From a virus, in the IMG/VR virus record IMGVR_UViG_3300037088_000882, positions 28,413 through 92,412 of that record: a stretch of 64,000 nt of DNA, one strand, 5' to 3'. The position numbers and the translations under genes are program-made. This document shows, in pieces, positions 3,959-64,000 of this stretch; position 1 is the first letter of the stretch, and every line of letters begins with the position of its first letter. The notes below the pieces were generated by a model. It had not been told where the DNA came from. It saw only the letters and a program-made list of their open reading frames with translations, and did no database searches.

Positions 3959-4044
3959 TGCGGATAAGAAGATTTGAACTTCTAAAAGGATTACTCCTCG
4001 CTGGTCTCTGAAACCAGTGTGTTTACCAATTCCACCATATCCGC
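3959..4044 (-). tRNA. tRNA-Leu(CAG)
   Basis: CTGGT-TTCAGAG-ACCAG, long variable arm. Confidence 0.93.
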
Positions 4045-4052
4045 GTAATATA

Positions 4053-4209
4053 TAGATTGCGTTCAAGTTACTAAAGCATTTACCCCTTTCGGGATACTTG
4101 TCGATTCTCAAGATCGATGCCTTACCAATTTGGCTATATTTCCATTCGGAAACACTCGGAGTCGAACCGAGATTAGTAATGTAGGCTTTAATTGTAAAAA
4201 CGCAATCTA
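4053..4209 (-). ncRNA. circularly permuted tRNA-like RNA 1 (YrlA/Y RNA-like)
   Basis: 11-bp terminal stem enclosing T arm, closed acceptor stem (TGTTTCC-GAAT-GGAAATA), D arm, then anticodon arm (TCGAT-CTTGAGA-ATCGA). Confidence 0.75.
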
Positions 4210-4212
4210 ATC

Positions 4213-4299
4213 TGGTGCGGTCGGTCTGATTTGAACAGGCATAGGATTGCTCCCACATGCACCTCAAGCATGCGTGGCTACCAATTACACCACGACCGC
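4213..4299 (-). tRNA. tRNA-Leu(GAG)
   Basis: CATGC-TTGAGGT-GCATG, long variable arm, CCA. Confidence 0.95.
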
Positions 4300-4307
4300 A
4301 TAATTTA

Positions 4308-4452
4308 TAAAGCCATATCCGAGTTATCAATGCTATCTTGATAGATTCTATTCTATTGCCTTTACCATTTGGCTATTCCCCCATAATTGGGGGAACGTGG
4401 AATCGAACCACGAATTTTTAATGTAAGCATCAACGGTAAAGATATGGCTTTA
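4308..4452 (-). ncRNA. circularly permuted tRNA-like RNA 2 (YrlA/Y RNA-like)
   Basis: 12-bp terminal stem; T arm CGTGG-TTCGATT-CCACG, closed acceptor TTCCCCC-AATTAT-GGGGGAA, D arm, hairpin with 6-nt loop; same architecture as RNA 1. Confidence 0.75.
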
Positions 4453-4465
4453 ATTTCAAAGAACT

Positions 4466-4554
4466 TGGTGCGAATGTAGAGATTCGAACTCTAAAGAGCT
4501 GTTAAGCTTCCAGATTCTAAGTCTGGCCCCTGCTACCAATTCGGGTACATTCGC
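4466..4554 (-). tRNA. tRNA-Leu(TAG)
   Basis: CCAGA-CTTAGAA-TCTGG, long variable arm, CCA. Confidence 0.95.
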
Positions 4555-4800: not shown

Positions 4801-4847
4801 AAACAAAAAACCCTGCTTGATCTTTAGAACCAAGCAGGGTTTTGTTT
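4801..4847 (-). terminator. attenuator terminator 1
   Basis: AAACCCTGCTTG...CAAGCAGGGTTT followed by U tract. Confidence 0.9.
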
Positions 4848-4867
4848 ATTTCTTTTTTAACTTTAGA

Positions 4868-4954
4868 TCAAGACAAAATCCTACCCGGTCCCTTTAGATA
4901 GCTAAGGTAATATGATAGACACAAAGGTAAGGATTGAATAGTCTTATTGCTCAT
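4868..4954 (-). CDS. leader peptide 1 (Leu/Tyr/Cys): MSNKTIQSLPLCLSYYLSYLKGPGRILS
   Basis: 28-aa ORF between promoter and terminator; its 3' end is complementary to the terminator 5' strand. Confidence 0.85.
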   Translation of the reverse strand: MSNKTIQSLPLCLSYYLSYLKGPGRILS

Positions 4955-4962
4955 GATAACTA

Positions 4963-4991
4963 AATATAACACAGAAAAAATAAAAAGTCAA
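4963..4991 (-). promoter_or_regulatory. sigma70 promoter of tRNA array 1
   Basis: TTGACT-17 nt-TATATT with extended TG. Confidence 0.8.
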
Positions 4992-8875: not shown

Positions 8876-8948
8876 AGCCGATGAGAGGGCTCAAACCTCC
8901 AACTTGCTGATTACAAATCAGCTACTCTATCAATTGAGTTACACCGGC
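8876..8948 (-). tRNA. tRNA-Thr(TGT)
   Basis: GCTGA-TTTGTAA-TCAGC; D and T loops slightly non-canonical; no CCA. Confidence 0.85.
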
Positions 8949-10249
8949 GTATGAACATATACGTTTTTAATATACTCCAAAGCATCTTCTTGATTCAAGA
9001 TCGTCCCCTCGAGTTGTTGGTCCTCGATATCGGTTAAGATAATACCGAACTCTGGGCCTTGTTTAAAGCCCATATTAAGCAAATCCTTACCAGTCACGAT
9101 TCTTGGAGGACGAATTTCTTCTGGCTCATAAGTCTTGAGCTTTTCGATAACGAAATCATAGTTCTCAAGATTCCTATGCGATGATAAACAATCTACCCGA
9201 TGAAGAGCTAAATGATCTTCAATATTAGGTAGAGCCAGAAATCTTTTCAGTCGAGAAACTCTCATTTTCTTCACATGCATAAATTTCATGTGGTTTTCGA
9301 CTAAGTCTGAAATTCGAGTTACGAAATCATTTGAAAATTTCAACCTTTTCAAAATTCCCCAAGCAATATACTTACCCTTGATATCGTGGCCACTAAACCT
9401 TATACGGTCCTCGAAGGTTTGAGTAGGTGGCTTACCCACATCATGCAATAAGGTTGCCATTCTCACCTCAATAGAAGCCTCAGTAGGAAGATTTTCAAGA
9501 GCTTTTATCGTATGCTCGAGAACATCTCCTTCGGGGTGGTATTGAGGTGGTTGCTCACAACCCTTCATGGCCCGGACCTCGGGCAGGATATGATCGATTA
9601 ATCCAGTATCAAAAAGAAGGTTTACTGCCTTCCTGTAATTACCTGCCATAAGAATCTTAGTAAGTTCATCTGCAACTCTCTCGGCCGAGACCTGGGTTAT
9701 TTCAAAGGCATGCCTTTGAACTGCCTCTATGGTGCCTGGATCGATTTTGAAATCAAACCTGGCAGAAAAACGTACAACTCTCATCATACGTAATTTATCC
9801 TCAGCAATACGGTCATCAGGATTACCTATAAGCTTTATGATACCCTTATGAAGATCTTCAATACCTCCAACAGAATCGTAAATCTTATCTTCAATTGGGT
9901 CATAGAACATCCCATTGATGGTAAGGTCCCTACGTTGAGCATCCTCTTCCATGGTGCAAAAAGAAACGCTATCGGGCCGTCGACCATCCGAGTACACTCC
10001 ATCAGTCCTATAAGTAGCTACTTCGACTTCCTGGCCTTCATGGACGACTACAATGACTCCGAAAGCTTTGCCAACTGCAAGAGTCTTATCGAATAATTGC
10101 TCGACCATTTCGGGACGTGCGTTAGTGGCTATGTCGATATCAGTTGAAGTCCTTTGTAAGAGCATGTCTCGGACATAGCCTCCAGCAAAGAGAGCTTCAT
10201 AGCCATGGTCTCGTAATTTTTTAACTACATATAATGCTTGTTGTAACAT
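8939..10249 (-). CDS. cca: CCA-adding tRNA nucleotidyltransferase with HD domain
   Basis: GGYVRD, DIDIAT, RRDLTIN, HPEGD and LLHDVGK motifs. Confidence 0.9.
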   Translation of the reverse strand: MLQQALYVVKKLRDHGYEALFAGGYVRDMLLQRTSTDIDIATNARPEMVEQLFDKTLAVGKAFGVIVVVHEGQEVEVATYRTDGVYSDGRRPDSVSFCTMEEDAQRRDLTINGMFYDPIEDKIYDSVGGIEDLHKGIIKLIGNPDDRIAEDKLRMMRVVRFSARFDFKIDPGTIEAVQRHAFEITQVSAERVADELTKILMAGNYRKAVNLLFDTGLIDHILPEVRAMKGCEQPPQYHPEGDVLEHTIKALENLPTEASIEVRMATLLHDVGKPPTQTFEDRIRFSGHDIKGKYIAWGILKRLKFSNDFVTRISDLVENHMKFMHVKKMRVSRLKRFLALPNIEDHLALHRVDCLSSHRNLENYDFVIEKLKTYEPEEIRPPRIVTGKDLLNMGFKQGPEFGIILTDIEDQQLEGTILNQEDALEYIKNVYVHTPV

Positions 10250-10250
10250 A

Positions 10251-10562
10251 TTATCCTATTTTGATATTTTCTTCTTCAATTTTAACCCCTTGTTTTTCAA
10301 GGGATTTGAGATCTCTTTCCAGTTCCTTTATATCTTGTTTTTTATGCTCCAAAACATATATGATAAATCTTTTTATAGCTATGGCATCTTCATCTGAAAC
10401 TTGAACAGTTGAATAGCTTGAAAATTGTATCTCTGATTTTGTTGGATCATCTTTTTTATAGCACAGTATTCGTGTGTTTGCACTACCGCCTGTGAAAGAA
10501 TATTCAATGCCTTCTGAAAAAAAAGATCCAGTACAGACATGCATAATATTAACATTTTTCAT
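10251..10562 (-). CDS. hypothetical protein
   Basis: 103 aa ORF in operon. Confidence 0.55.
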   Translation of the reverse strand: MKNVNIMHVCTGSFFSEGIEYSFTGGSANTRILCYKKDDPTKSEIQFSSYSTVQVSDEDAIAIKRFIIYVLEHKKQDIKELERDLKSLEKQGVKIEEENIKIG

Positions 10563-10581
10563 ATTTTATCCTATTTAAATT

Positions 10582-10659
10582 TGGGGTGGAAGACGGGGCT
10601 TGAACCCGCAACCACTGGCTTCACAGGCCAGGGCTCTAGCCAATTGAGCTACCTCCACC
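10582..10659 (-). tRNA. tRNA-His(GTG) with encoded G-1
   Basis: CTGGC-CTGTGAA-GCCAG; G-1:C73; CCA. Confidence 0.95.
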
Positions 10660-10665
10660 ATAAAA

Positions 10666-11355
10666 TCAGTCTTCTCTTACTTGAACAAATTTTTCGATGT
10701 ATTCTCGATCTTTAGTGAAAATCGGAATGTTTAAATCTACATCCCCATTAACAACACAAAAACCACGTTTCCGCACAACTGGATATTTATCGAAATTTAT
10801 TCCTTTTTTCTGGAATAGTAACTCTTGTATTTCCTTACAAGAGACTTTATTTAATTCCTTGTGTGAAAAGTTTTCTCGCCCTGCCATCTGGATTGAGTTC
10901 CTGGTGGCATCCACTTGTCTCCATATGAAATAGTTTACTACCTCATCCTGAGGAATTGAAAAAACTCTACTATCAAAACAGACGTTGCTTCCATAGAGTC
11001 GAGAAAAGACTGCACTGGCCAAGGAAGCTGATATTGAAATCATTTTTCGTGCATCGTATCCGAACCAGGCATCTGTCGAGATCTTTTTATAATCTGTTAA
11101 AAGAAAGCTTATTTCGTCGGATTGGCAGTAACAAAAACCGCACCCTTGAATGTCAGCTAATACCGTATTAGCAGTTGCGATCATTTGCTCGGTAAACTCC
11201 ATGGACCATCCTTTTCCGAATCTTTTTCTGGTGATGGTGTGGAAGGCCCGGCCATCGATCCTGAGTATTACCGGAATCCGTCTTGGTAAAGTCCAAGCTG
11301 AGACTGATTCATAACGCTTCATGCGATCGCCTAGGTCTAACCTATCACTACTCAT
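10666..11355 (-). CDS. thg1: tRNA-His guanylyltransferase Thg1-like 3'-5' polymerase
   Basis: RMKRYE, RIDGRAFH, QSDEIS, FDSR and WRQVDATRNS motifs. Confidence 0.93.
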   Translation of the reverse strand: MSSDRLDLGDRMKRYESVSAWTLPRRIPVILRIDGRAFHTITRKRFGKGWSMEFTEQMIATANTVLADIQGCGFCYCQSDEISFLLTDYKKISTDAWFGYDARKMISISASLASAVFSRLYGSNVCFDSRVFSIPQDEVVNYFIWRQVDATRNSIQMAGRENFSHKELNKVSCKEIQELLFQKKGINFDKYPVVRKRGFCVVNGDVDLNIPIFTKDREYIEKFVQVRED

Positions 11356-12297: not shown

Positions 12298-12317
12298 AAG
12301 AACTCCCTTTTTAAAGA

Positions 12318-12379
12318 TGGCAGGAGTGGATCGAACCCCCATCGTCGGTTTTGGAGACCGGGTGCTTAGCGACACTCCT
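12318..12379 (-). tRNA. truncated tRNA-Trp(CCA)-like gene (62 nt)
   Basis: AGGAGTG/CACTCCT-G-CCA acceptor, CTCCAAA loop; D arm minimal, T-stem 3' strand missing. Confidence 0.6.
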
Positions 12380-12381
12380 AT

Positions 12382-12424
12382 AAAACAAAAAACCCCGCCG
12401 AATCTTTCGATCGAGCAGGGTTTG
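12382..12424 (-). terminator. attenuator terminator 2
   Basis: AAACCCTGCTCGA...TCGGCGGGGTTT followed by U tract. Confidence 0.88.
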
Positions 12425-12452
12425 ATTTGAAACACTTTATTTTTACTTAACC

Positions 12453-12551
12453 TTACTCGATCTCCAATATAGTATGCCAATGTGCCCATGATGTCGATGT
12501 GGTGGCCATTGCATTATTAGAGGATGATGTAGTAAGATTAATTGTTTTCAT
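12453..12551 (-). CDS. leader peptide 2 (Thr/Ser/Trp/His/Ala): MKTINLTTSSSNNAMATTSTSWAHWHTILEIE
   Basis: 32-aa apparently leaderless ORF; stop region pairs with the terminator 5' strand. Confidence 0.9.
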   Translation of the reverse strand: MKTINLTTSSSNNAMATTSTSWAHWHTILEIE

Positions 12552-12558
12552 GGTTATA

Positions 12559-12587
12559 ATTATACTATATATTTCGGTTCGTGTCAA
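12559..12587 (-). promoter_or_regulatory. consensus sigma70 promoter of tRNA array 2
   Basis: TTGACA-17 nt-TATAAT, 7 nt before the leader ATG. Confidence 0.9.
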
Positions 12588-55745: not shown

Positions 55746-56296
55746 ACTCGAAATCCTGTCTTTATAATTTGACCGCCCTTACGTGAAATTATAAATTCTT
55801 TTTTTACTACAGGTAAGTCTTCTAATTTTATACCCCGTTCGGTTAAATGTATTACCTTTTGATTTGATGATCCCTTCCAGCCTTTATTACATATCTCATC
55901 TTGTTCAAAAGGACCTATGCTTACAATGTCCAATACAGTTAATAATGCAAGGTGGTAACAATGCTCTGTTGCAGGAGAAAGACTCAATGATGAATATCCA
56001 GTTGTTAGAAAAACACTGGTATAATCGAACACTCCCTTGCAAAGCTCATAGACCGCTTTGTATTGATCCAAGGGCTCGCCTCCAGTTATGGAGATACCAT
56101 CGATACCCTCAGTTGAAAGAATGTCTTTAATGAGGTCCTGAACATCGTACTCAATGCCTCCGCTAAAGTCCCAGGTATCGGTATTACTACATCCAGGGCA
56201 ATGTATGCTACATCCTTGAACCCATATAGTGTAGCGAGTCCCAGGTCCCTGGGCTCGGAGTTTTTTTCCGATATAGTTAACACGTAATTTAGACAT
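55742..56296 (-). CDS. radical SAM NrdG-like activating enzyme
   Basis: GPG.R..WVQGCSIHCPGC, TGGEP and GSSNQ motifs. Confidence 0.85.
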   Translation of the reverse strand: MSKLRVNYIGKKLRAQGPGTRYTIWVQGCSIHCPGCSNTDTWDFSGGIEYDVQDLIKDILSTEGIDGISITGGEPLDQYKAVYELCKGVFDYTSVFLTTGYSSLSLSPATEHCYHLALLTVLDIVSIGPFEQDEICNKGWKGSSNQKVIHLTERGIKLEDLPVVKKEFIISRKGGQIIKTGFRV

Positions 56297-56534
56297 CTTT
56301 TTTAGCCTTAACCGCTTCGATTTTCTTTCGAGCTTCATCGTGATACTTTTCCATCAAATCTCCGATGTAACAGGCTCCACGTTTTGGCCTTTTAGTCTTC
56401 CATCCACAGGAGCATTTATCTTTAGCTGTTCCATTACCGCCTCGTTCGCATTCTGAGCAATCAACGGATAGATTTCCTTTAGTATCTACTGTACTATGCA
56501 TTTTTATTCTCCCGTGAAAGAGCTCCCTGAACAC
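56289..56534 (-). CDS. small Cys-rich hypothetical protein
   Basis: CSEC, CSCG. Confidence 0.5.
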   Translation of the reverse strand: MFRELFHGRIKMHSTVDTKGNLSVDCSECERGGNGTAKDKCSCGWKTKRPKRGACYIGDLMEKYHDEARKKIEAVKAKKDV

Positions 56535-56772
56535 GACCCATAACGGTTCTGTAGGGTAAATTAATGATATAAGTTGTATTATTAAAGTCCCTGAGGGCCG
56601 TCTGATCTTTACTTTGAGGATAAATTAAAGTAATATGATCAATGTTTGTCAAGCCATCCTCTTGGTTAATATCAATTCTTGGTACTCCCAATGGCGTGAC
56701 ACAAGCAATAGGAAAATTTAAAAACTTCATTTTACATCCATTTCTTTGATAGCCCTGCAAGCCACAGGACAA
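56494..56772 (-). CDS. hypothetical protein
   Basis: ORF track; start probably MKFL. Confidence 0.45.
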   Translation of the reverse strand: MSCGLQGYQRNGCKMKFLNFPIACVTPLGVPRIDINQEDGLTNIDHITLIYPQSKDQTALRDFNNTTYIINLPYRTVMGRVQGALSRENKNA

Positions 56773-57142
56773 ATTTCCAGTATTTACGAACCCTTATATG
56801 CTTACCATTAGGCATGTTATGGTAAGTCACATTGCCACTCATATCTGTTCTTTTATAAGAAGTGTTCATAAGCCATGTACGGAGCCGTATAGTATTATAC
56901 TCAGCTGTTCGTACTAGTTCTTCTGTTATGGGAACGTTTTCCTTAAATCTATGAATGCCTCCAGCACAGCCCCCATTACACCATACGTAATGTAAGGCAT
57001 CGAGTTCGAGATTCTTTTTTCTCGTCGCTTCATTGAGCATTTGAAGGGCGTGTTTTTGATGATGGATTAATTCTTCAAGTTGTTTTATATGTATAGCTTG
57101 GTTTTTTATTTTTAATTCTAGATCAGACATTATAAGCCCCAT
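56732..57142 (-). CDS. hypothetical protein
   Basis: ORF track. Confidence 0.55.
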   Translation of the reverse strand: MGLIMSDLELKIKNQAIHIKQLEELIHHQKHALQMLNEATRKKNLELDALHYVWCNGGCAGGIHRFKENVPITEELVRTAEYNTIRLRTWLMNTSYKRTDMSGNVTYHNMPNGKHIRVRKYWKFVLWLAGLSKKWM

Positions 57143-58146
57143 TTAAGAATGTATTCATTAGATAAGGCCTTGAAGCTGATTTTTTCTAAACTGTCATACA
57201 GCCTGAAAACCGTACCCTCTTGTAAAAGTTGGGGGTTTAAAGGGCTTGGAATATCGGCCATTTTTAAAAGTTCATCACAAGTATGGTTCAGAATGAAATT
57301 ATCATTGAGGATCGGAACTGTTTTTAATCCTAATCCTTTAACAAATGAAAGCATATCATCAAGCTTTAAGTACTGCTGTTTTTTAATGTCAAAAACATAA
57401 AACACATAAAGGTCAACACCTTTTAATTTGATCCGATTGCTTTGAATTCCTTCTCCTGCAGTTTCAGCCTGGATAGCATACCCATCAGGAAGTTTTTCTT
57501 TCAAATTGTATCGGTTAGCAAGTTTCCAAAATATGTTTTTATCATTCTCTATAAATTCTAAGCTATGACCACAGGCCCCGAATATTCCATCACTTTTGTA
57601 AAAGGTTGATGAAGTTCCATCTATTTTAGATGTTAAGTAAAATCTTTGCCCCTTATATTTATTAAGCAAGCTAAGACAGTTTTGAACTCTCTCTTCATCA
57701 GTTTTCGGTATTATTCCTGGTAATAACCCCTTCATTTCTCCGGCCAGGTGTACGGGAATAGGGGGTTCGTATCTATAAACCCCAATTTGCTTAGTAACTT
57801 CAGTTCCGATTTCTCGATCGGTTATTTCTGGGAATTGAAATAAAGGGAGAGCTAGACCTTGCGAGATTTGGCCTCTGAGCCTTATTGTCTTTAAGCGGAA
57901 TCCTATAACTTCTTTACCGTCCTCTATAATGGATTTTTTTAAAGTATTTCCTTTTGAAAGGAAGGAGAACTGGGGAATATTAGGTAATAATGAATCCACT
58001 TCAAAGTACAAACAGAGATCTTGAGGTTTGAAATTACCTTTTTGTGTTACACACCACCATCCTTGAATTCTTATTTTTTCAATAGCATCGGCCCCTTCAA
58101 TGGGCAAAACTTCTTCAATACGCTGTATAGAGGCGAGTTTACGCAT
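57130..58146 (-). CDS. RNA ligase (DRB0094/Rnl2-like)
   Basis: RKLASI..ADAIE N-domain, KTDEER, KIDGTS, EG.V and SFK motifs. Confidence 0.9.
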   Translation of the reverse strand: MRKLASIQRIEEVLPIEGADAIEKIRIQGWWCVTQKGNFKPQDLCLYFEVDSLLPNIPQFSFLSKGNTLKKSIIEDGKEVIGFRLKTIRLRGQISQGLALPLFQFPEITDREIGTEVTKQIGVYRYEPPIPVHLAGEMKGLLPGIIPKTDEERVQNCLSLLNKYKGQRFYLTSKIDGTSSTFYKSDGIFGACGHSLEFIENDKNIFWKLANRYNLKEKLPDGYAIQAETAGEGIQSNRIKLKGVDLYVFYVFDIKKQQYLKLDDMLSFVKGLGLKTVPILNDNFILNHTCDELLKMADIPSPLNPQLLQEGTVFRLYDSLEKISFKALSNEYILKWGL

Positions 58147-58203
58147 TACTGTCCTTTTGTTTGGTTTATCTTATTATACTAAGTTGCAGGAGGAAAAATC
58201 AGA

Positions 58204-58884
58204 TCAAATTTTATTGTGGGCAAAAATGTAATTACCGCCCGTATTCTTCATCAGTTTATAATTGGGGCCAATAATATTTTCGAACTCTTTTTGGGTTGTG
58301 GGGAATTTCTTTAGAGGGGCATATTCTACAATAATTATTTTTGGGTCGTATTCTTCAAAATTTAATCCTCGCAAGACCGCCAGGTCGTTTCCTTCTGTAT
58401 CAATACACAGGGCATCAATATCTTTAATGTTGTGTTTCTTAAAAAGATCGTTTAGCGTTAAAACTGATACTTCTTCCTGTCCTATATCTGGACCAAGTCT
58501 ACGGTCATTAGGGTCTTCTGGTTTTGTTTCTTGCTCTCTTAATGAATGGCATCCTTGCTCTCTTTTTATGAATAAAGTAGCTTTTTTTGATACACTTGAT
58601 ACTGCTATATTTTCCAAAATCACTTTATTATTGTTATCGTAAAGATATTTTAATTGTTTAAAATAAATAGAATAAGGCTCCACTAAAAGAGCACTCCAAT
58701 CATATTCATTGATCAATTTAAATGAGTTAGATACACTAACTCCATCAGCAGCTCCTACATCAACAATAAGGCCATTTTTCTTACTGTTAAAGTAATTAAT
58801 AATAAAGTCGTCTTCATTGTTTGATGCAGTAAATGTACGGCTGGCACGAAAAGCACTTATTTTGGGATCTTTTAGGTTGATCAT
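58204..58884 (-). CDS. FkbM-family methyltransferase
   Basis: VDVGAADG.SNS, VEP and IDTEG motifs. Confidence 0.85.
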   Translation of the reverse strand: MINLKDPKISAFRASRTFTASNNEDDFIINYFNSKKNGLIVDVGAADGVSVSNSFKLINEYDWSALLVEPYSIYFKQLKYLYDNNNKVILENIAVSSVSKKATLFIKREQGCHSLREQETKPEDPNDRRLGPDIGQEEVSVLTLNDLFKKHNIKDIDALCIDTEGNDLAVLRGLNFEEYDPKIIIVEYAPLKKFPTTQKEFENIIGPNYKLMKNTGGNYIFAHNKI

Positions 58885-58976
58885 GTTTTTCCCTTCTTAT
58901 TCGTATTTGAATCTTTATTAAATAAATATAATAGAAGATTATGCGGTTCTGAATAAGAAATGTTTTAAAGAGGGAG

Positions 58977-59062
58977 TGGCGGAGAGCCGGCGATTTGAAC
59001 GCCGAAGCCCTTTCGGGCGCTGGTTTAGCAAACCAGGGTCATACCATTAGACATAGCTCTCC
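58977..59062 (-). tRNA. tRNA-Ser(GCT)
   Basis: CTGGT-TTGCTAA-ACCAG, long variable arm, CCA. Confidence 0.95.
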
Positions 59063-59310
59063 ATAATTTGTTTGATAAGGTTTTGTTCTATAAATCTTTT
59101 TACATCAGCAGGATAGATAGTGTAAGCAATATTATCAATCTCATAATCTGGGTCGTCGCCTAAAAATTCAATAAATCTTTCTAAAGGTATTTCTTCTCGT
59201 TTTCTGTTTGGGGTAAATATTATAAGGTTCCCTCGTTGTCCTCGGAGATACCATTTCCATGTATCAGCCCCGATGTGAATTTTTCTTAGAGCTTTCATTT
59301 TACGAGACAT
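59047..59310 (-). CDS. hypothetical protein; stop codon inside tRNA-Ser
   Basis: SD AAGGA. Confidence 0.6.
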   Translation of the reverse strand: MSRKMKALRKIHIGADTWKWYLRGQRGNLIIFTPNRKREEIPLERFIEFLGDDPDYEIDNIAYTIYPADVKRFIEQNLIKQIMESYV

Positions 59311-59328
59311 GCGTTTTCCTTAAAATAG

Positions 59329-59404
59329 TGGTGGGTGTTTCCAGACTCGAACTGGAATAACAGGATTTTCAGTCCCGCACCTTGACCCCGTTGGTAAAAC
59401 ACCC
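59329..59404 (-). tRNA. tRNA-Phe(GAA)
   Basis: CGGGA-CTGAAAA-TCCTG, CCA. Confidence 0.9.
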
Positions 59405-59458
59405 ATTATAAAGACACTAAAGCCATCGTTGTCCATTGGGTGTTTCCTTTCTTGTTAA

Positions 59459-59535
59459 TGGTAGGCCCGGACCGAGTTGAACGGTCGACCCCTACCTTAT
59501 CAGGGTAATGCTCTAACCATCTGAGCTACGGGCCT
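59459..59535 (-). tRNA. tRNA-Ile(GAT)
   Basis: TTACC-CTGATAA-GGTAG, CCA. Confidence 0.95.
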
Positions 59536-59542
59536 GTAAATC

Positions 59543-59629
59543 TAGCGGGAGCAGGATTCGAACCTGCGTCCTCTGTTAAGAGGTGAGGCTTATGAGACCC
59601 CCGAGTTAGACCAACTACTCTATCCCGCG
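59543..59629 (-). tRNA. initiator-type tRNA-Met(CAT) with long variable arm
   Basis: C1:U72 mismatch, CTCATAA loop, variable stem CCTCT-TAAC-AGAGG. Confidence 0.8.
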
Positions 59630-59637
59630 ATAATTTA

Positions 59638-59715
59638 TGGTGGTGGTAGCTGGATTTAAACCAGCGAATCTCTGGATTATGATTCCAGGGCATTAATCAG
59701 CTATGCTATACCACC
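59638..59715 (-). tRNA. tRNA-Met(CAT), elongator (or Ile2)
   Basis: CTGGA-ATCATAA-TCCAG; atypical D and T loops; CCA. Confidence 0.75.
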
Positions 59716-59769
59716 ATATTAGCTCCTCCAATTTTTTGTGCTTTTAGTGTGTACATCTAAACTCCATAA

Positions 59770-59846
59770 TGGCGGGCCCGACGTGGATCGAACACGCGAC
59801 CTCCGCAGTGACAGTGCGGCGTTCTAGCCAATTGAACTACGAGCCC
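59770..59846 (-). tRNA. tRNA-Asp(GTC)
   Basis: CCGCA-CTGTCAC-TGCGG, G73, CCA. Confidence 0.95.
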
Positions 59847-59890
59847 AAAAAACAAAAAACCTCGTTGGTTTCCCAGCGAGGTTTTGATTT
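59847..59890 (-). terminator. attenuator terminator 3
   Basis: AAAACCTCGCTGG-GAAA-CCAACGAGGTTTT followed by U tract, directly before tRNA-Asp. Confidence 0.9.
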
Positions 59891-59913
59891 AATCTATTTT
59901 GTTACTTGTTAAA

Positions 59914-60003
59914 TCAAGACCCCGCCTTAGGCATAGTATCAAACATGCTATCACTAATGATAAACATAAAGCTGATACTGACGGTCTTGGTTGAAAGTAA
60001 CAT
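59914..60003 (-). CDS. leader peptide 3 (Ser-AGY/Ile/Phe/Met/Asp): MLLSTKTVSISFMFIISDSMFDTMPKAGS
   Basis: 29-aa ORF with SD AAGGA; stop region pairs with the terminator 5' strand. Confidence 0.9.
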   Translation of the reverse strand: MLLSTKTVSISFMFIISDSMFDTMPKAGS

Positions 60004-60046
60004 TGAAAGTAATTTCCTTAGTAAAGTAAACTGCGAATCTTAATTA

Positions 60047-60075
60047 AAGATAACACATAAAAAAGTTTTTGTCAA
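60047..60075 (-). promoter_or_regulatory. sigma70 promoter of tRNA array 3
   Basis: TTGACA-17 nt-TATCTT with extended TG. Confidence 0.8.
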
Positions 60076-60379
60076 TATATTTTTTTAAAAAAATAATTTA
60101 TACTCGATTTCATGTATAAGAGTGTATAATTTGTTATAAATAATTTTAAAGATAAATTTGCACTTAAGTTATTTTTATGCTATATTAAGGTCTAATAGTT
60201 TATCTCTATAGGTTTTTTACTTATTTGTTTTTCAAAGGAGTTTTATATGTAATCGCAAAATGTTTACTCGCTTCATTTGTGTAATAGCCAGTTGGGTCGG
60301 GCCATTAAGTGTCCCATTAATACTGACAGGCTAACGTTTTAAGATCACTAAACGCAAAACAACTAACAAGGAGTCTATC

Positions 60380-60985
60380 ATGGTTTCTCTATCCGCCCTC
60401 ATTGACTTACACGCCTCTTTTGACACTCAGTACGGAATCGGTAACAATCTCATTCATTATCTTGCTCAACTTCGAACTACTCAGAATTTTGATTTTGAAG
60501 GTATAAAACAGCTCTTTATTACCCGTCAAAGCCCACAAAGATTTGATGAGTTTAATTTAAAAGTAGCTCCTATGGATATATCTCTTTTAAAAAAGAGACT
60601 TGTACTTCCTGCAAGTGATAATGAAATTTACCGAATTGTTATGTCAGAGGATCCGACAATCCCAGAATTGGAACTCTTTTCTTTTAAATGCCCTGGCTGG
60701 TCGAATTTATTTGCCCTGAAATGGTATTTGGTGCATCACATGGATAAGGCTAAGGCCTTTACTGGGTTTCTTCCCTATGGCTCTCCTGTAGTAGCCTTTG
60801 TAAATTCTTTGAGATCTAAACCTCGAAACATCCCGATGAACCCAGATTATGCAGATCATGTGTACTTGCAGACAATTAGTAATCAGGAGGCCTTGACTTT
60901 TAATATGCCTTCAATCGAAATAAATAATATTATGTATCTTAAAGGATTGAAGTATACAAAGGCTGAAAAAGAAATATCTGAATAA
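60380..60985 (+). CDS. hypothetical protein
   Basis: SD AAGGAG. Confidence 0.65.
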   Translation: MVSLSALIDLHASFDTQYGIGNNLIHYLAQLRTTQNFDFEGIKQLFITRQSPQRFDEFNLKVAPMDISLLKKRLVLPASDNEIYRIVMSEDPTIPELELFSFKCPGWSNLFALKWYLVHHMDKAKAFTGFLPYGSPVVAFVNSLRSKPRNIPMNPDYADHVYLQTISNQEALTFNMPSIEINNIMYLKGLKYTKAEKEISE

Positions 60986-60991
60986 TTTTTC

Positions 60992-61020
60992 TTGACTTTA
61001 CTTTTTAAAACAGTTATAAT
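60992..61020 (+). promoter_or_regulatory. sigma70 promoter of tRNA array 4
   Basis: TTGACT-17 nt-TATAAT, 6 nt before the leader ATG. Confidence 0.88.
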
Positions 61021-61026
61021 TATACC

Positions 61027-61104
61027 ATGTTAAAAAATACGTTAAACACAATTATAGGTACGGTCGGGATAAGTGAACGTAAGGTAGGAGGATTTCTAAC
61101 CTGA
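61027..61104 (+). CDS. leader peptide 4: MLKNTLNTIIGTVGISERKVGGFLT
   Basis: 25-aa apparently leaderless ORF; CCTGACAGGGCCT pairs with the terminator 5' strand AGGCCCCGTCAGG. Confidence 0.8.
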   Translation: MLKNTLNTIIGTVGISERKVGGFLT

Positions 61105-61134
61105 CAGGGCCTGTATTGTATAAAAAGTAAGTTC

Positions 61135-61170
61135 AAGGCCCCGTCAGGAAACCGACGGGGCCTTTTTTAT
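61135..61170 (+). terminator. attenuator terminator 4
   Basis: AAGGCCCCGTC-AGGAAACC-GACGGGGCCTT followed by U tract. Confidence 0.92.
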
Positions 61171-61215
61171 TGTTTGTTCTTTTACATTGTTGTTCGAATT
61201 AAGAAGCACCTTTAT

Positions 61216-61288
61216 GGTCCGTTCGTCTAGTGGTTAGGACATGAGATTTTCATTCTCAAGATCACCAGTTCAATCCTGGTACGGACTA
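61216..61288 (+). tRNA. tRNA-Glu(TTC)
   Basis: TGAGA-TTTTCAT-TCTCA; GTCTAGTGG D arm; no CCA. Confidence 0.9.
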
Positions 61289-61292
61289 TTAC

Positions 61293-61367
61293 GGCTCTAT
61301 CGTCTAACGGCTAGGACGAAGGTTTTTCGAACCTTAGACTGGAGTTCAACTCTCCATAGAGCTACCA
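61293..61367 (+). tRNA. tRNA-Glu(TTC), second divergent copy
   Basis: AAGGT-TTTTCGA-ACCTT; CCA. Confidence 0.85.
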
Positions 61368-61457
61368 ATTTAACCCTTGTTGCATAGACTTGGGTTCAGC
61401 TCCTTAATAGGAGTTGTGAGTTGAAATAGGTAAGAACTGACACGCTGCCAGGAATAT

Positions 61458-61538
61458 AGGGTAGTACCGAGCCGCTCTTATAAGGCGGATAGTCGTAATG
61501 GTATGTGGAAGATATGAGTTCAAGTCTCATCTACCCTA
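61458..61538 (+). tRNA. D-armless tRNA-Ile(TAT)-like RNA
   Basis: AGGGTAG/CTACCCT-A acceptor, CCGCT-CTTATAA-GGCGG, T arm ATGAG-TTCAAGT-CTCAT; about 25-nt variable region. Confidence 0.6.
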
Positions 61539-61579
61539 CTTTTCTTTTTATATTAAGATTAAATTTCAGTATAATTAGC

Positions 61580-61918
61580 ATGTCTGTAAGAGCTGTTATA
61601 ACATCAGGTGGTAAAGACCTTACTATATCTTTTAGTGAGCCTTTATTTATAGGTAGTGGGCTTTATTTTAATGTTGAAGAAAGAATAAAAGAAATTTGTT
61701 ATTCTTTTATTTCAAAACCTAATACTGTAGAGAATCGACAAATATTAGCCTCGGCTATAACTCAATTTTTATATCAAATGCTGGCACAAGACTATTTAAC
61801 AATGAATGGCATTTTTGGGAATCCCCAACTTCAAGATATTCTTATAGATAAGACACAAAGTCCCTTGTTTAAACTAAATTCTCGGTATGATCTTTTATTA
61901 AGAAACCCTTCTTTATAG
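61580..61918 (+). CDS. hypothetical protein (start MSVRA)
   Basis: The longer ORF call overlaps the tRNA-like element. Confidence 0.55.
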   Translation: MSVRAVITSGGKDLTISFSEPLFIGSGLYFNVEERIKEICYSFISKPNTVENRQILASAITQFLYQMLAQDYLTMNGIFGNPQLQDILIDKTQSPLFKLNSRYDLLLRNPSL

Positions 61919-61926
61919 GAGTTTAC

Positions 61927-62499
61927 TTGAAACGTATAGGTTTTATAGGTGTTCCTGGATCTGGTAAATCTTGTGTCGCCCGTGGTCTGGCTGCTCGAGG
62001 GTATGAGAAATTAAATAAGATCGAGCTTGTTTCTGAGTATGCAAGACGTTTTATAGCAAAATATGGTACAGTTGACGTAAGTGACCAATATAAAATAATG
62101 CAGAAGCAGCTTGAGTGGGAAGACGTGATTCCCCAAGATAAAACTGATGTACTTATTACGGATAGCCCTGTATTTCTAGGATTTCTTTATGCTTTAAATT
62201 TAAGAGACTCGAATAATGCGAAAGACGTTATGTATATCAATGACATTTTTAAACGTATGAGTAAACTGAATTGTCCAAATAGGTACGATATAATATTCCA
62301 TCTGCCTCCAATATGGAAACCTGTCCAGGACGGGGTTCGTCCACAGGATCATTTTGACGATACCTGGAGAAATGAAGCGGATAACCTATTACAGTTTATT
62401 TTTAAGCTTTTTCCTCCTAAGCATTTTGTGACCTTAAAGACAGACACTTTAGATCTCAGAATAAATGAATGCCTCGAAATATCAGAAAAATACCTTTAG
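61927..62499 (+). CDS. NadR-type/AAA_28 P-loop kinase
   Basis: GVPGSGKS, SEYAR, ITD and DGVR motifs. Confidence 0.8.
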   Translation: MKRIGFIGVPGSGKSCVARGLAARGYEKLNKIELVSEYARRFIAKYGTVDVSDQYKIMQKQLEWEDVIPQDKTDVLITDSPVFLGFLYALNLRDSNNAKDVMYINDIFKRMSKLNCPNRYDIIFHLPPIWKPVQDGVRPQDHFDDTWRNEADNLLQFIFKLFPPKHFVTLKTDTLDLRINECLEISEKYL

Positions 62500-62538
62500 A
62501 CTAATCCGCCAATTCTGTATAATACAATCAGGAGGATT

Positions 62539-63024
62539 ATGGGAACTGAATACTATCTATACAATCATGCCAATGCTACTTATTATGAGTTAGGTAAGGG
62601 CCCTTTTGGAGCACATATTATAGACACCCATAAAAAGGATCTCTATAATGCTGAGGCTTTTTTAGATGTTTTGAAAAAAGAATGGAATAGCTTTTCTACT
62701 TCTGTGCCCGAAGATGATCGGATAAAATATTTCACCCTTATCGCTCAGGATCTTCAAGCTTTTGTGAAAGACACACCCGAAGATCAGATTCAGTGTTTTG
62801 GGGATAACGGTGATGAGGATTTGTGGGCAGATTGGCTTAAATATGAATTTGTAGGAACACGGTATGGTTTAGGGTCTCCTGACCATGAGACTTACATGAA
62901 AGAAATGAAGAATCGTATTTTGGAAGATCAGGTCGAAGCAGACCTCACTTTAGATTTCAGTGAGCGTGAAATAAAAATCATGAAAGTAGAAGGCTGGAAT
63001 TTTAAACACCGGGAATCAGCATGA
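62539..63024 (+). CDS. hypothetical protein
   Basis: SD AGGAGG. Confidence 0.65.
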   Translation: MGTEYYLYNHANATYYELGKGPFGAHIIDTHKKDLYNAEAFLDVLKKEWNSFSTSVPEDDRIKYFTLIAQDLQAFVKDTPEDQIQCFGDNGDEDLWADWLKYEFVGTRYGLGSPDHETYMKEMKNRILEDQVEADLTLDFSEREIKIMKVEGWNFKHRESA

Positions 63025-63260
63025 AGATACATTGTATCGGACATAGACTTACAAAAAACTTTGCTTGGGAATTAGCTTATTTTAATTTCATCCGAAAATT
63101 TTCAGATGGCATTACATTCTTTAATTTCTTAATTGATTTTGACCTATTCAAAGAAGACCACAACCCTCAATTTAGAATTTGTTTAACTGTACTTAATACA
63201 GTAATTTTTGAGTTCCAAATATATAATACCAATCATATTCCCGAGGAGCTTTATGTCTAA
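63021..63260 (+). CDS. hypothetical protein
   Basis: ORF track. Confidence 0.5.
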   Translation: MKIHCIGHRLTKNFAWELAYFNFIRKFSDGITFFNFLIDFDLFKEDHNPQFRICLTVLNTVIFEFQIYNTNHIPEELYV

Positions 63261-63699
63261 GTCCTTTATCTTAATGCTTATTGCCGTTAGTTTTTGTTTT
63301 GCAGATTCAGATAGCCTTCCCAATCCTTCATTATCGCCTGGGGATACAATCCCAGGTGCTGGGGCCTTGCTCTGTACTCCTGGGTATTCTAAGTCAGTTC
63401 GTCATGTATCTGGATCGACTAAGCATAAGGTTTATGAAGAGTATGGTATTACGAGCCGTAAGCCAGCAGAATACGAAGTCGATCACCTTATCTCCCTCGA
63501 GCTGGGGGGTAGTAATGACATCCAGAATCTATGGCCTCAGAGTTATGTAACTCAACCTTGGAATGCACATAAGAAGGATGTTCTGGAAAATAAATTGCAT
63601 CAATTGGTATGCTCGGGTCAGATTCCTTTGCATCAGGCTCAGTATGAGATTGCACATGATTGGATTGCAGCTTATAAAAAGTATGTGGGAAATAAATAG
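63253..63699 (+). CDS. secreted HNH-like nuclease
   Basis: Signal peptide; EVDHLISLELGGSNDIQNLW..HKKD. Confidence 0.7.
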   Translation: MSKSFILMLIAVSFCFADSDSLPNPSLSPGDTIPGAGALLCTPGYSKSVRHVSGSTKHKVYEEYGITSRKPAEYEVDHLISLELGGSNDIQNLWPQSYVTQPWNAHKKDVLENKLHQLVCSGQIPLHQAQYEIAHDWIAAYKKYVGNK

Positions 63700-64000
63700 G
63701 TGTTTTATGTTTAGACTTCAAGCAATGCGTTATTTGACAACAGAATCTTTAAGACACTTAGACCAAGCCCCAGCACTTAAAGAGCCTGAATATGTGATAG
63801 TCTTATCTTACATTGCAACACTTAAAAGTTTAGAGAAAAAAATATTTCTTAAATGTTTGGATAAAGAGAATAGCCGCATATATAAGGCTTATTTAAAAAT
63901 TGAAGAAGAAATAAATAAGGAGAAAGAACAAAGAGAATTTTTAAAACGAGAAAAGCGTAAAAAGGCTAAGGAGAAAAAAGAGAAGGCCTTTTCTAAAATA

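Follow-up and report, generated by a model that had tools for sequence, protein, structure and literature searches.

Element 4, at 60992-61170 of the 64,000-nt stretch of phage DNA analysed here (the window), is probably a ribosome-mediated leader-peptide transcription attenuator, and would belong to a family of such switches controlling tRNA operons in this giant phage. Textbooks have described leader-peptide attenuation for fifty years; to our knowledge, it was previously known only from amino-acid operons and one synthetase operon, and a full-text literature search found no publications on leader-peptide control of tRNA genes. The class of leader-peptide attenuators described below is new for tRNA genes, and element 4 is a member of it by architecture.

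The window corresponds to contig positions 28413-92412, and its right edge coincides with the last base of a single 92,412-bp contig. The IMG/VR record is a linear fragment with a completeness of ~20% (CheckV). A 474,422-bp contig (Logan/ENA) encodes proteins identical to those of 57130-58146, 60380-60985, 61927-62499 and 63253-63699, which shows that the genome extends past 64000. Exact-pattern scans of viral contigs and genome contigs did not find a copy of the last bases of the window.

Element 4 has the layout of a transcription attenuator

The features of element 4 are, in order:

60992-61020, +, sigma70-type promoter (-35 TTGACT at 60992-60997, 17-nt spacer, -10 TATAAT at 61015-61020)
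61027-61104, +, leader ORF of 25 codons plus TGA (61102-61104), with its ATG at 61027-61029
61048-61068, +, segment 1 (leader codons 8-14), pairing with segment 2 if no ribosome sits on segment 1
61054-61056, +, ATA (codon 10), candidate control codon
61066-61068, +, ATA (codon 14), candidate control codon
61075-61077, +, GAA (codon 17), candidate control codon
61100-61119, +, segment 2, the antiterminator 5' arm, holding the stop codon (61102-61104)
61136-61148, +, segment 3, partner of either segment 2 (antiterminator) or segment 4 (terminator)
61135-61168, +, intrinsic terminator with an 11-bp G+C-rich stem (segments 3 and 4; segment 4 at 61152-61163) and T6 at 61163-61168

The promoter agrees with the consensus at 11 of 12 positions, a top score shared by two sites within 56000-64000, and follows the pattern that heads the three sister elements of the window. 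Directly downstream of it, ahead of the genes that would be regulated, lies the short leader ORF, whose translation had been given exactly in an earlier note on this DNA. The ATG stands 6 nt past the -10 hexamer and no Shine-Dalgarno sequence precedes it, which implies, on promoter geometry only, that the mRNA would be leaderless or nearly so. Dinucleotide shuffling of the 108 nt preceding the terminator gave all three of the following together in 0.4% of shuffles: an ATG at the 5' end, an ORF no shorter than 15 codons, and a stop lying 20-40 nt ahead of the terminator.

The RNA downstream of the promoter can fold in mutually exclusive ways. The antiterminator arms (61100-61112 and 61136-61148) pair at 12 of 13 positions and thereby exclude the terminator hairpin (61135-61165), while a pairing of 61048-61068 with 61100-61119, absent from the earlier note, completes the classical four-segment layout. 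Calculated energies were -16.8 to -19.3 kcal/mol for the 1:2 pairing, -23 to -24 kcal/mol for 2:3 and about -23 kcal/mol for 3:4. The alternative folds are balanced (antiterminator -23.3 vs terminator -23.2 kcal/mol), and with both at ~-23 kcal/mol this switch is the strongest of the four in the window; the fold z-score of the element is -3.6 (vs 200 shuffles). The ORF is also placed as an attenuator would have it: its stop lies within segment 2, and the ATA and GAA codons lie in segment 1 or at most three codons past it. The claim that element 4 shares its architecture with the other three attenuators of the window is borne out, with promoter, ORF, switch and terminator all found at 60992-61170.

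Known RNA families were considered and rejected. For a T-box there was no Rfam match at the gathering threshold in the window, nor one at E <= 1 in 60950-61600. Known Rfam leader families scored well below their gathering thresholds (Phe_leader RF01859, 24.3 bits vs 55; trpB motif RF04312, 29.1 vs 59), and these two matches are likely a generic resemblance to a hairpin followed by a T-tract.

tRNA and protein genes follow the terminator

Behind element 4 we found the following genes and sites:

61215-61289, +, tRNA-Glu(UUC), first copy (ARAGORN; Rfam 61.6 bits)
61293-61367, +, tRNA-Glu(UUC), second copy, differing in sequence from the first (ARAGORN; Rfam 59 bits)
61458-61538, +, non-canonical tRNA with anticodon UAU (Rfam 37 bits, cut-off 29; ARAGORN in -mt mode only)
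61547-61575, +, promoter-like site, heading the protein genes from 61580
61580-61918, +, protein ORF
61927-62499, +, protein ORF (AAA_28 P-loop)
62539-63024, +, protein ORF
63021-63260, +, protein ORF
63253-63699, +, protein ORF (weak HNH-like)
63707 to the contig end, +, protein ORF

The first tRNA-Glu starts 47 nt past the T-tract on the same strand, so that a tRNA block stands directly behind the terminator, and no second promoter was seen between the two. In the tRNA at 61458-61538, recovered by the metazoan-mitochondrial (-mt) mode of ARAGORN, the D arm is down to 4 nt and the variable region carries an insert of 22 nt; from its anticodon, this tRNA would read ATA, and do so without lysidine. 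The 90-nt spacer ahead of it (61368-61457) has no Rfam match and folds with z = -1.4, which is not significant. Neither ARAGORN nor Rfam (E <= 1) detected a tRNA in 61540-64000, the 2,461 nt after the last tRNA, and the first 28.4 kb of the contig holds none. Relaxed ARAGORN calls in 61540-64000 and in the first 28 kb were dismissed as noise, as they are scattered within ORFs and have no Infernal tRNA match. At the head of the protein genes, a TATAAT hexamer stands 4 nt ahead of the gene start at 61580; leaderless starts may therefore be common in this phage, beyond the attenuator leaders.

Three sister attenuators mirror the tRNAs of their own operons

The window holds three further elements of this design:

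4808-4991, -, A1, promoter at 4991; ahead of Cys, five Leu and Tyr tRNAs
12390-12587, -, A2, promoter at 12587; ahead of Trp(CCA)-like, Thr(GGT), Ser(TGA), His, Thr(TGT) and Ala tRNAs
59857-60075, -, A3, promoter at 60075, 29-codon leader; ahead of Asp, Met, Met, Ile(GAT), Phe and Ser(GCT) tRNAs

All three have ORFs of 28-32 codons, strong terminators and an antiterminator 5' arm that holds the stop codon. The leader ORFs of A1 and A2 are leaderless, and that of A3 is preceded by a Shine-Dalgarno sequence. Scored by strict wobble rules against a codon background of 73 long ORFs of the contig (G+C 36.9%), each leader is enriched in codons read by the tRNAs behind it: 10 of 27 codons match in A1 (P = 0.002), 16 of 31 in A2 (P = 5e-7) and 15 of 28 in A3 (P = 9e-5). 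Among the 24 permutations of leader-to-operon assignment in the window the true one ranks first, and the off-diagonal pairings are all non-significant. The mirroring extends to the choice of codon: all five Ser codons of A2, whose operon has Ser(TGA), are TCN, and the four core Ser codons of A3, whose operon has Ser(GCT), are AGY. In the same vein, two TGG codons in the A2 leader fit a tRNA-Trp(CCA)-like gene (12316-12383, -) that lies directly past the A2 terminator and has a reduced D arm; relaxed ARAGORN reports it, and both default ARAGORN and Rfam at the gathering threshold miss it. The same layout in A1-A3, together with their mirrored codons, gives class-level support to the attenuator reading of element 4.

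Genes for tRNA maturation and repair lie within the attenuator-headed operons (8939-11355, -, and 57130-58884, -). Their products are a Thg1-like tRNA-His guanylyltransferase, whose gene stands just upstream of tRNA-His, an FkbM-type methyltransferase, a CCA-adding enzyme that has an HD domain and an RNA ligase that has an OB-fold domain; in the A2 operon the tRNAs are interleaved with the Thg1 and CCA-adding enzyme genes. As a separate observation, two ~170-nt gaps in the Leu tRNA array (4044-4466, -) read like circularly permuted tRNAs, in the order T arm, acceptor 3' strand, short loop, acceptor 5' strand, D arm and anticodon-like hairpin; a sub-threshold Infernal tRNA match of 24.8 bits lies at 4091-4143.

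The design recurs in two other huge phages

Eight more elements of the design were found in two other huge phages, five in LR756501 and three in OFNC01000024. LR756501, a 735-kb uncultured phage, is the best GenBank match of the window's RNA ligase. It has 66 tRNA matches to the Rfam model and at least five elements, each ahead of the corresponding tRNA block, with these leader sets:

Leu
Tyr/Asn/Asp/Cys/Ile
Met/Gln/Ile(ATA)/Glu
Ser/Lys/His/Phe/Trp
Thr/Pro/Ala/Val/Arg/Gly

Between them these sets take in all 20 amino acids, and the true leader-to-operon assignment ranks first of 120. One of these leaders, with three ATA codons and one GAA, stands ahead of Ile(TAT) and three Glu tRNAs. The metagenome contig OFNC01000024 was reached via a homologue of a 201-aa protein, the one whose gene lies just ahead of element 4. 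It carries 27 tRNAs and three elements, for which the true assignment ranks first of six:

leaderless ORF containing two Cys codons, followed by a single tRNA-Cys
mixed leader of 48 codons, followed by an array of 25 tRNAs
17-codon leader with Arg-Arg-Arg and one further Arg, all CGN, ahead of tRNA-Arg(ACG) and tRNA-Arg(TCG)

Among the 12 elements, that is, the four of the window and the eight of the other phages, the leaders mirror their own tRNAs in 11 (P <= 0.02 in nine), and the stop codon falls within the antiterminator arm in all 12. Sequence statistics in three unrelated assemblies thus point to a class of tRNA-operon attenuators.

Several other features of these two genomes were recorded. 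Three LR756501 leaders (piece L009, 7412-7544, 14064-14191 and 28355-28483) end in or near Leu-Ile-Gly, and their terminator core is CCCAATCAG in two and a close variant, CCCCAATCAG, in the third. From these common leader ends and terminator cores, it appears that duplication multiplied the attenuators and that their leader cores diverged afterwards. The tRNA-Ile(TAT) of LR756501 is canonical and adjoins Met tRNAs. Two adjacent tRNAs with anticodon CTA at 690585-690737 (piece L013, 1586-1739), labelled Pyl by ARAGORN, are candidate amber suppressors. At the end of OFNC01000024 (piece L004, 6749-6774) an Illumina adapter-like sequence is present, an assembly artefact in the public record.

No relative of the element 4 locus itself was found. 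Searches of GenBank phages by blastn and tblastn returned nothing or tRNA matches only, single-protein scans of IMG/VR and a scan of genome contigs returned no relatives, and a degenerate tRNA-Glu pattern and the A1/A2 terminator pattern had no matches. Profile scans gave one IMG/VR locus without tRNAs and seven metagenome loci; element 4 is kept in none of them.

Leader 4 has few codons that match its visible tRNAs

The codon counts that had been reported for leader 4 are right (two ATA, one GAA, four Gly, two Val, two ACG, one Arg, two Lys and two Asn), and its ATA and GAA codons do correspond to tRNA genes in view, tRNA(UAU) and tRNA-Glu. The match is modest in extent: 3 of 24 codons (ATA, ATA, GAA) match the element's own tRNAs vs ~2 expected (P = 0.3), and at least two ATA codons would occur by chance with a probability of 0.14. 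On the visible tRNAs, the core codons of leader 4 do not mirror the operon as those of the class do, and element 4 is the only one of the 12, hence the only one in the window, whose own-operon codon match is not above expectation. The count is consistent with a switch that, like trpL, uses few control codons, yet it is indistinguishable from chance. The trpL leader has two control codons, showing that few can suffice, and the LR756501 leader of Ile(TAT) and Glu, with its three ATA and one GAA, resembles leader 4 in this respect.

The earlier note had offered a different account of the remaining codons, namely that leader 4 lists the whole of a longer operon, so that + strand Gly, Val, Thr(CGT), Arg and/or Lys tRNAs would follow past 64000 in the same unit, before any other attenuator. 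Its starting point stands: neither the window nor the whole 92,412-bp contig has a tRNA for Gly, Val, Arg, Lys, Asn or Thr(CGT). Several points favour the proposal. The leader core mirrors the operon closely in the eleven sister elements, and that of leader 4, with only Glu and Ile(UAU) in its operon, would otherwise be an outlier. Sister operons span 4-8 kb, with protein genes interspersed among their tRNAs (the Ala tRNA of A2 is 3.9 kb downstream; in LR756501, Glu tRNAs lie 4 kb and Thr(CGT) 8 kb after their leaders), and no + strand terminator was seen between 61168 and 64000. Only ~20% of the genome is present, and relatives carry these tRNAs. Finally, the rare codon ACG (0.76%) occurs twice in leader 4 (P = 0.014, for a codon chosen after the fact).

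However, the composition of leader 4 as a whole is that of the background: 11 of its 24 codons have no phage tRNA on the contig, where 44% would be expected (P = 0.52). Any peptide of 24 codons with so average a composition would give the same forecast, and a mere listing of the Gly, Val, Arg, Lys and Asn codons therefore does not predict anything on its own. Moreover, most of the codons invoked fall in the generic N- and C-terminal parts of the leader, and four fall in pairing segment 1. Ten of the 12 leaders have Lys or Asn at positions 2-5, and eight of these ten head operons without a Lys or Asn tRNA; well-initiated ORFs in general have A-rich codons behind the start. Gly occurs among the last eight codons in 9 of the 12 (seven of these nine operons have no Gly tRNA), and in most such Gly tails the G-rich codons are the antiterminator 5' arm, whose pairing partner is the C-rich arm of the terminator. 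The remaining four codons, GGT ACG GTC GGG, are those of segment 1 and are required to pair with segment 2. The Gly, Val, Thr, Lys, Asn and Arg codons of leader 4 are therefore best read as generic or structural and not as a list of unseen tRNAs; the candidate control codons that remain are the two ATA and the GAA.

The downstream DNA also speaks against a longer operon. The 2,461 tRNA-free nt already in view would be an exceptional gap, since gaps of that length account for only 1 of 85 within the sister operons (1 of 20 among gaps >250 nt), and the promoter-like site at 61547-61575 heads the protein genes. Combining a generous prior of 0.6 that the leader core mirrors unseen tRNAs with a likelihood of ~0.1 for the long gap, which is a matter of judgement and not of measurement, we consider it unlikely that the operon continues in this way. 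It is much more likely that the missing tRNAs lie elsewhere in the ~474 kb genome, behind leaders of their own. Were the longer operon real, leader peptides could predict tRNA gene content blind, and this would amount to strong proof, short of experiment, that ribosome stalling is how the phage meters each tRNA set.

The average composition of the leader and its intact switch geometry would also suit a general translation-rate sensor that answers any slowing of the ribosome and not particular codons, or a decaying copy whose specificity was lost after tRNA genes were lost or moved. A broad-composition leader likewise heads the large mixed array of OFNC01000024, and tRNA groupings vary between related phages. 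Against this, the strongest switch of the four together with a near-consensus promoter does not suggest decay, and the ATA and GAA codons, in segment 1 or at most three codons past it, stand roughly where control codons are expected; we rate this reading as quite improbable, a step behind the longer operon. Least probable in our view is a ribosome-independent barrier, in which the terminator is fixed or factor-controlled (e.g. overridden by a phage antitermination protein as a means of timing) and the ORF is untranslated or irrelevant: the non-significant codon match, the missing Shine-Dalgarno sequence and the well-established precedent of phage-encoded antitermination (lambda N and Q) favour it, but the ORF geometry recurs in all four window elements and in eight from two other phages, and a protein-only switch leaves the leader mirroring (11 of 12) unexplained.

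A model for control by ribosome position

Returning to the attenuator reading, we start from the observed promoter, ORF, four mutually exclusive pairings, terminator, tRNA genes and codon mirroring in the sisters, and infer translation of the ORF, ribosome stalling and read-through. Transcription would start at or next to the leader ATG, and a ribosome could load once the 5' end emerges. Unhindered, it would reach the TGA and cover segment 2, leaving segments 3 and 4 to pair and transcription to terminate at the T-tract ahead of the tRNAs. A ribosome that stalled before this point, with the two ATA codons or the GAA as the most plausible sites, would instead cover segment 1 and leave segment 2 free; this could then pair with segment 3 as the antiterminator, allowing the polymerase to read into the two tRNA-Glu genes, tRNA(UAU) and the protein genes. 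If no ribosome were loaded, the 1:2 and 3:4 pairings would both form and transcription would stop. The net result would be negative feedback, with tRNAs made for as long as decoding of ATA and GAA is slow.

Relation to known systems

In its parts, element 4 resembles the multivalent attenuators that head amino-acid operons in enterobacteria (thrL and ilvL, as well as trpL, hisL, leuL and pheL), which likewise consist of a promoter-proximal short ORF and an intrinsic terminator. These attenuators also share the exclusive 1:2, 2:3 and 3:4 pairings, with ribosome position deciding the fold. They regulate biosynthetic enzymes, whereas element 4 is viral, would have a leaderless mRNA and stands ahead of tRNA genes. 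Unlike them, it would sense the supply of the decoding tRNA itself, and by Rfam it shows no membership of these families in sequence. A leader-peptide attenuator of a translation-apparatus component is known in E. coli pheST (pheM leader). As in element 4, the target of pheST belongs to the translation apparatus and not to a biosynthetic pathway; it differs in that the target is an aminoacyl-tRNA synthetase, the system is cellular and a single amino acid is sensed. T-box riboswitches are also terminator/antiterminator switches that read the state of a specific tRNA. In contrast to element 4, they lack an ORF, bind uncharged tRNA directly and act on genes for synthetases and amino-acid metabolism.

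The nearest published system is the trn operon of Anabaena PCC 7120, a long accessory tRNA array that is silent until translation is impaired (PMC8421152). The rtcB RNA-repair genes are co-regulated with this array and adjoin such arrays in other genomes (PMC8421152). Control there acts on the promoter, by way of direct repeats and the repressor TrcR (PMC8421152, PMC10272220), and the words 'leader', 'attenuat' and 'terminator' are absent from the text of PMC8421152. The Anabaena array answers global stress, while element 4 is proposed to answer particular codons.

Implications for tRNA supply in giant phages

Within its class, element 4 is a boundary case, an intact switch without visible mirroring, and either marks a limit of the rule or makes a forecast that the full genome can check. 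If the attenuator reading is right, each tRNA set of a giant phage would be transcribed only while ribosomes stall on its codons. This would constitute a self-regulating tRNA supply, which could answer shortage from any cause, be it host anticodon nucleases, host shut-off or a mismatch in codon usage. It would also help to account for the grouped tRNA arrays that adjoin tRNA repair genes in huge phages.
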